Shown here: positions 27,343-29,036 of the stretch, in pieces
How the letters are laid out: each line of letters begins with the position of its first letter
How positions within the stretch are numbered: the first letter of the stretch is position 1
Assembly (NCBI GenBank): GCA_902765025.1
Contig: CACWYC010000001.1
Span: 71,586 to 135,585, forward strand
DNA length: 64,000 nt
Source of the DNA: Oscillospiraceae bacterium
GTDB taxonomy: Bacteria > Bacillota > Clostridia > Oscillospirales > Oscillospiraceae
Reading direction: 5' to 3'
The notes under the pieces: generated by a model
Seen by the model: only the letters and a program-made list of their open reading frames with translations
Databases searched by the model: none
What the model was told of the DNA's origin: nothing
Position numbers and translations under genes: made by a program

Positions 27343-27983
27343 TCCTGTCGCGTATGGAACTGGACCCCACAAAACGGGAAACAAGGCTGGCGCTGGCCGC
27401 GCCAAGCCGATTCCACGGTGCAATCGAGAGCGCCTTTCCCGGAGAACGACGCAGGCGGCTGTGGCGGCTGGATGTTCTGCACGGGACACCCTATCTTTTG
27501 ATCCTCAGTGAGGACCGCCCCGATCTGACCGGCGCGGTTACGCAGTTCGGCGTGTCGGGACATGAGCCACAGTGGGAATCACGGGACTATTCGCCTCTGC
27601 TGACCCGCACTGTGGCGGGAAGCTGTTGGTATTTTCGCCTGACGGCGAATCCTACGCGCAGCAAGTCCCGAGCCGGGGAGAGGGGAAAGGTGCTGGCGCA
27701 CATTACACCATACTTTCAAAGGCAATGGCTCATAGAGCAGAGCAAAAAGCGGGGCTTCGCCATCTGTGAGGACGGATTCGAGGTGGTGAGCAGCCAATGG
27801 CTGCATTTTGACAAAAGGGGACGCAACGCTGTGACACTGCTGTCCGCTACCTTCGAGGGCGTGCTGACTGTGACCGATGAGGTGCTGTTCCGCAAGACAC
27901 TGACTGAGGGCATTGGCCGCGGAAAAGCCTACGGAATGGGATTACTGACGCTTATGCGCGTTTCGGAGACGAACAATGGATGA
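27339..27983 (+). CDS. cas6: crRNA-processing endoribonuclease Cas6e (Cse3/CasE)
   Basis: FRLTANPT, FEGVLTV, Gly-rich loop GIGRGKAYGMGLL. Confidence 0.96.
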   Translation: MILSRMELDPTKRETRLALAAPSRFHGAIESAFPGERRRRLWRLDVLHGTPYLLILSEDRPDLTGAVTQFGVSGHEPQWESRDYSPLLTRTVAGSCWYFRLTANPTRSKSRAGERGKVLAHITPYFQRQWLIEQSKKRGFAICEDGFEVVSSQWLHFDKRGRNAVTLLSATFEGVLTVTDEVLFRKTLTEGIGRGKAYGMGLLTLMRVSETNNG

Positions 27984-28215
27984 GAAACTGCCGGGCATTG
28001 AGCGCCCTCGCCTTCAGGCGTTGCCGCAGATCGGCCACCGCATGACGCCAGTTCCCGCCGCCGGCATCTCTGTCTTGCTGTGGCGCGGAGAATGTATGAA
28101 ATGCGTTTTCCGGGGGAGGACGTTTCTGTCATGACAATGCAGCAGCTTCGCGGAAAAGAAGGCAGCAGAGTCCGAAAAATCTATCGTGAGGCTTCTAAGC
28201 AGTGGAACATACCGT
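27976..28215 (+). pseudogene. cas1: cas1 (I-E) remnant with internal deletions, a frameshift and 3' truncation; cas2 absent
   Basis: Three Cas1-like segments: [35 protein letters not shown], and in another frame [47 protein letters not shown], ending at the first repeat. Confidence 0.88.
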
Positions 28216-29036
28216 CTATTCCCCGCGCACGCGGGGGTGATCCCTACCGACCGTATCCAGGCAGCGCGGCTGCGAACTATTCCCCGCACACGCGGGGGTG
28301 ATCCCGAGGGCGTCAAGTGGACGCCGGAGCGCCAGTTCTATTCCCCGCGCACGCGGGGGTGATCCCTGCATGGGTTTTTGTTTGAGTTGCCCCAAAAGCT
28401 ATTCCCCGCACACGCGAGGGTGATCCCAACGATTTCAGCGATAACACGGTGTTCAACGACTATTCCCCGCGCATGCGGGGGTGATCCCCGCCGACCGCAT
28501 CCGGGCAGCACGGCTGCGAACTATTCCCCGCGCACGCGGGGGTAATCCCTGGCCCAGGACGGAGTTGCTATAATACTGCAATTATTCCCCGCGCACGCGG
28601 GGGTGATCCCATGTTGGACGCCCTCCGCAAAAAGACTGACGACTATTCCCCGCGCACGCGGGGGTGATCCCAAGCTCTTTTACGACTGCCTGCCATCCTG
28701 GGCCTATTCCCCGCGCACGCGGGGGTGATCCCACGTGTTCGCCCGCGGCGTTGATGTCCGCCAACTATTCCCCGCGCACGCGGGGATGATCCCGGCTACG
28801 GCCTGCTGTCCGACGCCGTCAGCTGCTATTCCCCGCGCACGCGGGGGTGATCCCGACACCACCACCGGCTTTTCCATAACGCCGCCCTATTCCCCGCGTA
28901 CGCGGGGGTGATCCCACCCACACAGGTCAGCATCAGAATGGGGCAGCCTATTCCCCGCGCACGCGGGGGTGATCCCGAGCACCACGGCGTCAATAAGGAG
29001 CACAGACGCTATTCCCCGCGCACGCGGGGTGATACC
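28216..29036 (+). CRISPR. Type I-E CRISPR array: 14 repeats (consensus CTATTCCCCGCGCACGCGGGGGTGATCCC, 29 nt), 13 spacers of 32 nt
   Basis: Repeats start at 28216, 28277, 28338, 28399, 28460, 28521, 28582, 28643, 28704, 28765, 28826, 28887, 28948 and 29009 (61-nt period); hairpin CCCCGC-GCAC-GCGGGG and an 8-nt handle as in E. coli I-E; degenerate last repeat indicates + orientation. Confidence 0.99.

Follow-up and report, generated by a model that had tools for sequence, protein, structure and literature searches.

Deletions that end at the edge of a type I-E CRISPR array have been described in enterobacteria. All of the ΔA1-12 deletion classes of Salmonella enterica start at LT2 coordinate 3078148 (Fabre et al., 2012, PLoS One, PMC3356390) and all of the ΔF classes start at Ty2 coordinate 2912462 (PMC3356390). 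These classes, more than 20 in number, have a common fixed end at the leader-proximal repeat and other ends that vary within cas3, and they go back to many independent events; no mechanism was offered, the word 'mechanism' being absent from that paper (PMC3356390). A cas3-to-repeat deletion was also reported at CRISPR2.1 of E. coli O156:H8 (Geue et al., 2017, PMC5359238). CRISPR4 of S. thermophilus DGCC7710 (PMC10470216) is adaptation-competent and carries cas1 and a cas2-DnaQ fusion, as do the intact relatives of the locus described here, to which its repeat core (...CCCCGCACACGCGGGGGTGATCC) is near-identical. Interference-only or orphan loci, finally, have kept their effectors and array, lack cas1-cas2 and show no new spacers among strains.

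The present locus, from a Clostridia bacterium of the gut, lies in the window, which denotes the whole stretch of 64,000 nt that was analysed. In common with the Salmonella scars it is of type I-E, has lost its leader and has one end fixed at a repeat edge, with the other (variable) end inside a cas gene running in the same direction. It differs from them in belonging to another phylum, in its Cas2-DnaQ fusion module and in a leader of only 20 nt. In Salmonella the variable end lies in cas3 and the whole system dies, whereas in the window it lies in cas1, about 1.35 kb away, and only adaptation is lost. The module that works in S. thermophilus CRISPR4 is the one deleted here. The window resembles interference-only and orphan loci in its gene content and in the lack of new spacers, but here the scar behind this state can still be read base by base, and it coincides with the cleavage site of the integrase. 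Scars of this class are already on record from Salmonella and E. coli; their occurrence in Clostridia with Cas2-DnaQ, and with a cas1 end that spares interference, is new.

Operon and array of the window

The interference module of a type I-E system was found on a single strand in the order cas3, cse1, cse2, cas7, cas5, cas6e (Table 1). Genes were named by NCBIfam and none of these ORFs is interrupted. The block of cse1, cse2, cas7 and cas5 (23312-27342) matched TIGR02547, TIGR02548, TIGR01869 and TIGR01868, all above the cut-offs, as were the matches of cas3 to TIGR01587 and TIGR01596 and of cas6e to TIGR01907, and gene calls of equal length for these four genes were obtained on contigs L094-L096 (see below). 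The cas6e stop overlaps the cas1 start (27976). The functional cas1, cas2 and leader of a complete type I-E system are absent from the locus: the TTTAGT leader end is missing before the array save for an ambiguous GT, and neither a second Cas1 of any type (TIGR03638, PF01867) nor a Cas2 was found in the genome (97.9% complete). The stretch from cas6e to the array showed no sigma-70-like promoter, and transcription of the array most likely occurs by read-through from the operon. The locus is dead for adaptation, with a frozen array, and probably still competent for interference. A stand-alone DnaQ-like exonuclease without a Cas2 part is encoded outside the window (contig C1, 165094-165615) and is 28% identical to the DnaQ half of the Cas2-DnaQ protein of L014, the closest intact locus.

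Table 1. Features of the locus in window coordinates; the last row gives the closest intact locus, L014, in its own coordinates
Feature	Position	Strand	Description
cas3	20575-23325	+	916 aa; HD nuclease and helicase; full-length ORF; matches to TIGR01587, TIGR01596 and PRK09694
cse1/cas8e	23312-24952	+	Full length; NCBIfam match above cut-off
cse2	24954-25571	+	Full length; NCBIfam match above cut-off
cas7	25568-26641	+	Full length; NCBIfam match above cut-off
cas5	26641-27342	+	Full length; NCBIfam match above cut-off
cas6e	27339-27983	+	214 aa; intact; TIGR01907
cas1 segment 1	27976-28047	+	Codons 1-24; aligns with L014 6638-6709
cas1 segment 2	28048-28080	+	Codons about 50-60; aligns with L014 6785/6788-6817
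cas1 segment 3	28073-28215	+	Codons about 120-166; frame +1 relative to segment 1; aligns with L014 6994-7136
CRISPR array	28216-29036	+	14 repeats (29 nt), 13 spacers (32 nt), 61-nt period
Terminator-like hairpin and T-run	29150-29172	+	3' of the array
L014 locus	cas1 6638-7582; repeat 1 at 8487		cas1 of 945 nt; cas2-DnaQ ends at 8466; leader of 20 nt

The repeat is CTATTCCCCGCGCACGCGGGGGTGATCCC, in a register that matches the E. coli I-E repeat, and the array has the 29-nt palindromic repeats and 32-nt spacers of type I-E. The last repeat (29009-29036) is degenerate. Eight substitutions, all of them transitions, were counted in repeats 1-13 (28216-28976), several of them in the leader-proximal repeats 2-7. 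Since an active array would keep refreshing repeats 2-7, their mutation agrees with a last acquisition in the distant past. No spacer gain at the former leader end was seen on the four contigs fetched from other samples (L094-L097), the arrays of which vary by loss only: spacers 5-7 are missing from L095 (4878-5455) and L096 (4184-4700) through a repeat-to-repeat deletion, and these arrays are otherwise identical.

Spacers 1 (28245-28276) and 5 (28489-28520) are identical at 27 of 32 positions, five transitions apart, and were apparently captured on two occasions from variant copies of one protospacer. No exact match was found in IMG/VR for the cores of spacers 1 and 5 (searched as a degenerate pattern covering both), 4 and 6. 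Spacer 5 matched contig C12 of the same organism at 25 of 32 positions, which looks like chance and was discarded.

The three cas1 junctions

The original prediction, made from the letters of the window, was that cas1 had been dismantled by three deletions, the last of which ended exactly on a repeat boundary. The deletions were sized by alignment to L014, from a Clostridia metagenome-assembled genome whose Cas6e is 81% identical to that of the window, and to four further relatives. This alignment bore out the three-deletion anatomy together with its coordinates, and gave 75 nt, 184 nt and about 1,350 nt for the missing stretches. A protein search found no intact Cas1 closer to the window fragments than the L014 group (about 87% at the protein level, about 83% at the DNA level), and the ancestral bases at the junctions were for this reason inferred from the five relatives. 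Of the roughly 945 nt of cas1, 240 nt are left 3' of the full-length cas3-cse1-cse2-cas7-cas5-cas6e genes; this stump is contiguous with cas6e and runs straight into the repeat. Within segment 3, frame 3 of 28080-28215 matched positions 112-158 of the Cas1e profile, with a second profile match at 107-156, so that only about positions 107-158 of the 269 in TIGR03638 score. At 51-54 bits against a cut-off of 215.6, and with a frameshift and a stop, the remnant does not qualify as a Cas1e integrase.

At junction 1 (28047/28048), an in-frame join as had been noted, 75 nt are missing, with a microhomology of about 2 nt; the window has CCA where the relatives show GCR. Junction 2 lies inside TCTTGCTG (28073-28080), where 184 nt are missing and an imperfect 8-nt microhomology is present, in agreement with the frameshifting join and apparent microhomology that had been noted at 28074-28080. 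The relatives have TCCTGCTG at one of its flanks and TCT[C/T/G]GC[C/G/T]G at the opposite one. The two smaller deletions (75 nt and 184 nt) have the look of ordinary pseudogene decay, for which the integrase is not needed, and they may have arisen as later decay of an already dead stump. Breakpoints within cas1 codons about 50-61 occur in three independent decayed loci (window 28048-28080; L016 6795-6803; L102, i.e. G356:C18, reverse strand, around 422920-423066), which may be chance; the DNA at these codons (GTTCCCGCCGCC) loosely resembles the 5' part of the repeat.

Junction 3 (28215/28216) accounts for the loss of about 1,350 nt relative to L014, comprising the 3' 446 nt of cas1, the cas2-DnaQ fusion gene and the 20-nt leader. 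It reads ...AACATACCGT followed directly by CTATTCC, i.e. cas1 ...ACC(GT) and then repeat nt 1 (C, 28216; feature 28213-28216). All five cas1 relatives have ...GT/GG at the window breakpoint, and AGT forms the leader end in 50 of 59 distinct I-E loci. The GT may therefore come from cas1 or from the leader end, which makes the breakpoint ambiguous by 0-2 nt. The placement of the third deletion at the repeat edge stands, while 'exactly' has to be softened to this extent. One end of the scar thus lies at nt 1 of the cas-adjacent repeat (with the 0-2 nt ambiguity), the leader is gone, the far end lies inside a cas gene of the same orientation and no mobile element is present at the junction. An AddAB Chi-like AGCGG just past the L014 breakpoint was given no weight; it is not conserved in the other relatives.

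The close relatives all encode a Cas2-DnaQ fusion (L014 7522-8466; L098 3942-4829; L100 1514-2401), and only 20-21 nt separate its stop from repeat 1. With a gap of this size, most of the leader function must sit in the 3' end of the cas2-DnaQ gene.

Scars of this kind could be produced by the assembly of a metagenome-assembled genome at a repetitive array; arrays often break assemblies, and the genome assembly consists of 54 contigs. However, Cas6e of identical sequence was present on seven contigs from other samples, and the same three junctions were found on all four that were fetched (L094-L097, from four ENA samples). Over 7.6 kb no difference separates L094 from the window, and the two may come from a single assembly; the other three contigs are clearly independent. 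Of these, L097 carries five SNPs relative to the window, three of them within the cas1 stump, and the two others carry the different spacer set described above. Furthermore, cas1 and the repeat have no k-mer in common that could mislead an assembler. With the same junctions on independent contigs, an artefact of assembly can be dismissed, its chance being negligible.

Repeat-anchored deletions in other loci

All three deletions could also be accounted for by ordinary illegitimate recombination, i.e. slippage or microhomology deletions in an unselected gene, the closeness of the third to a repeat edge then being coincidental. The microhomologies of up to 8 nt at junction 2 and about 2 nt at junction 1 are in keeping with such a process, junction 3 may use the GT common to cas1 (CCGT/GG) and the leader end (AGT), and unanchored deletions are common in related loci. 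A survey of other cas1-truncated I-E loci had been suggested; the DNA 3' of cas6e was examined in 80 related genome loci, and one further fusion to repeat nt 1 was found. In this locus (L016, sheep-colon Clostridia, Cas6e 57% identical) codons 1-52 of cas1 are fused to repeat nt 1: cas1 ...GTTTGCGTTCCG (...GTTCCG) runs straight into CTTTTCCCCGCACGCGCGGGGGTGATCC and no leader base is retained. The cas1 breakpoint differs from that of the window, which indicates that the L016 fusion is an independent event. The fusion and the same 17-repeat array occur in at least six assemblies from different samples, the array being likewise frozen, and no other Cas1e was found in the genome of the L016 lineage. 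If endpoints are assumed to be uniform over the 61-nt period, the chance of this replicate alone ending at nt 1 is about 1/61 to 2/61.

No further cas1-to-array fusion was found in 401 genomes of the same order, in 401 Actinomycetes genomes or in 80 metagenome loci. Such fusions are rare: only two were seen among roughly 200 I-E loci examined, and both end at nt 1. Many deletions of cas1/cas2 were unanchored, namely those in L040, L064, L072, G252, G768, E. coli H220 and the IS1 cases H119 and H120, and frameshifts were seen as well. Two candidates were set aside, namely G356, which has an N-terminal cas1 stump but no array adjoining on its right, and G252, a heavily decayed locus that does not show this scar type.

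A third repeat-anchored scar is present in E. coli CX12 (NZ_CP073719.1, from the complete-genome collection), where cas3 ...GCTACGTTATCT (...TTATCT) runs straight into GTGTTCCCCGCGCCAGCGGGGATAAACCG. The junction partner GTGTTCCCC... begins at repeat nt 1 in the E. coli I-E register GTGTTCCCCGCGCCAGCGGGGATAAACCG; in intact E. coli loci cas3 goes on with ...TTATCTCAACAG and the leader has ...GCTTAGT at its end. As in the window, the 5' part of a cas gene meets repeat nt 1 to the base, with no insertion sequence between them. In the E. coli scar, by contrast, all Cascade genes are lost too, and the enterobacterial leader is about 100 nt long. The E. coli variant with divergent cas3 is rare. Anchored scars are one class among several kinds of deletion in E. 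coli loci. H119 and H120, found as partial matches to K-12-type cas3, contain IS1-mediated deletions of another type, and H220 has an internal cas3-to-cas1 deletion with the leader retained. In L199 (E. coli NZ_CM194529.1, 2501-3148) a deletion runs from cas3 nt 135 to mid-cas1 and cas2, leader and array are kept, an unanchored counter-example.

A plain GT-microhomology deletion that ended 2 nt inside the leader is possible for the window taken alone, but it does not explain the recurrence. L016 ends at repeat nt 1 without a leader base, E. coli CX12 does likewise, the more than 20 Salmonella classes have that same end, and the chance per event is only about 1/61 to 3/61. For these reasons ordinary illegitimate recombination is considered unlikely as the source of the large deletion.

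Origin of the large deletion

Spacer integration begins on the leader side, where Cas1-Cas2 cleaves the top strand precisely at the bond between the last base of the leader and nt 1 of the repeat. Breaks reportedly arise at the array during integration. In the Cas2-DnaQ type I-E system of S. thermophilus the leader-side integration is the first and more efficient step (PMC10470216). An end that is base-exact, one-sided and recurrent at the leader-repeat bond fits a product of Cas1-Cas2 chemistry best, and a break or strand transfer at the leader-side cleavage site of Cas1-Cas2 is the best, still unproven, explanation of the deletion of about 1,350 nt; on the available sequences we put the chances that it is correct at about even. 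Two routes can be envisaged. A leader-side nick or integration intermediate might become a DNA end, the leader side of which would be resected through the leader and cas2-DnaQ into cas1 and then rejoined to the unresected repeat end via 0-2 nt of microhomology. Alternatively, in a half-site reaction in cis, the integrase might attach a 3'-OH of the chromosome, located within cas1, directly to nt 1 of the repeat. By either route the integrase's own genes would be lost in a single step. The hairpin of the repeat, as read from its sequence, begins at nt 6, so that slippage driven by it would not be expected to break the DNA at nt 1.

The proposal that the deletion came from aberrant activity of the integrase on its own gene has accordingly gained from L016, CX12 and the Salmonella classes. 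It is not provable from sequence, unanchored deletions exist as well and the other two junctions need no integrase. The present first repeat, moreover, need not be the original one.

A junction precisely at repeat nt 1 is likewise predicted if the array had once acquired a 32-33-nt spacer from cas1 itself in direct orientation. Homologous recombination between this spacer and its protospacer would then delete the DNA between them and leave cas1 sequence up to repeat nt 1, autoimmunity possibly selecting the recombinants. The interference genes would be kept, as is observed, and DNA next to arrays is said to be a hotspot for the acquisition of self-derived spacers. Such a scar should show a PAM 32-33 nt upstream of the junction. 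The PAM-like motif that had been suggested as a check at the cas1 breakpoint was not found 32-34 nt upstream of the window junction, and nothing there points to a self-derived spacer. No AA or AAG was found 31-34 nt upstream at any of the three scars (window TCT/CTA, L016 GCT/CTG, E. coli CX12 GGA/GAA), whereas 84-97% of the spacers acquired in E. coli are quoted as having an AA(G) PAM (PMC10470216). The test is weak for the S. thermophilus-like subclade, in which only about 35% have AA (PMC10470216), and its power is correspondingly low for the window, which belongs to that subclade. Overall, recombination with a self-derived spacer seems very doubtful.

The leader-repeat junction might also be fragile without catalysis by Cas1-Cas2, for example through stalling of replication forks at a bent or protein-bound leader or through effects of transcription start, with the breaks being repaired at the expense of upstream DNA. 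Recurrence at a single place would be expected here too, and a bound factor is plausible given that the TTTAGT leader end is conserved across phyla (50 of 59 loci). Against this stands the single-base precision at nt 1 despite leaders of 20 nt in Clostridia and about 100 nt in enterobacteria; precision across such different leaders is better accounted for by a phosphodiester-specific enzyme than by fork stalling, and a junction that is fragile of itself is judged distinctly unlikely.

The TTTAGT leader end is kept from Clostridia to Rothia (CAAGT) and E. coli (GCTTAGT; K-12 TTTTAGA), as read at the first repeats of L014-L183, at L195 19130-19139 and at L191. This conserved leader end is probably the leader anchor of the integrase.

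Loss or freezing of CRISPR-Cas systems is usually blamed on random decay, insertion sequences or escape from autoimmunity. The recurrence of anchored scars in two unrelated Clostridia lineages, in E. coli and in more than 20 Salmonella classes points to a specific and testable cause, namely that the adaptation machinery endangers the DNA just upstream of the array, its own genes included. We tentatively propose, although the odds appear somewhat against so broad a reading, that type I-E Cas1-Cas2 may through a recurrent side reaction or break at the leader-side site join upstream DNA to repeat nt 1 and excise the leader along with its own genes. This could be a general, cross-phylum route to the loss of adaptation (Clostridia, cas1 stump) or of the operon (enterobacteria, cas3 stump). 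In the window the outcome is an interference-only system with a fossil record of spacers, which bears on the reading of arrays as infection histories and on the costs and benefits of active adaptation.

In two further contigs of the L016 lineage (L184 and L185, 4377-5654) genes for a resolvase and an ArdC-N/MPTase-PolyVal protein come after the frozen array. With resolvase and ArdC-N genes beside the array, the locus of this lineage may sit on a mobile element.
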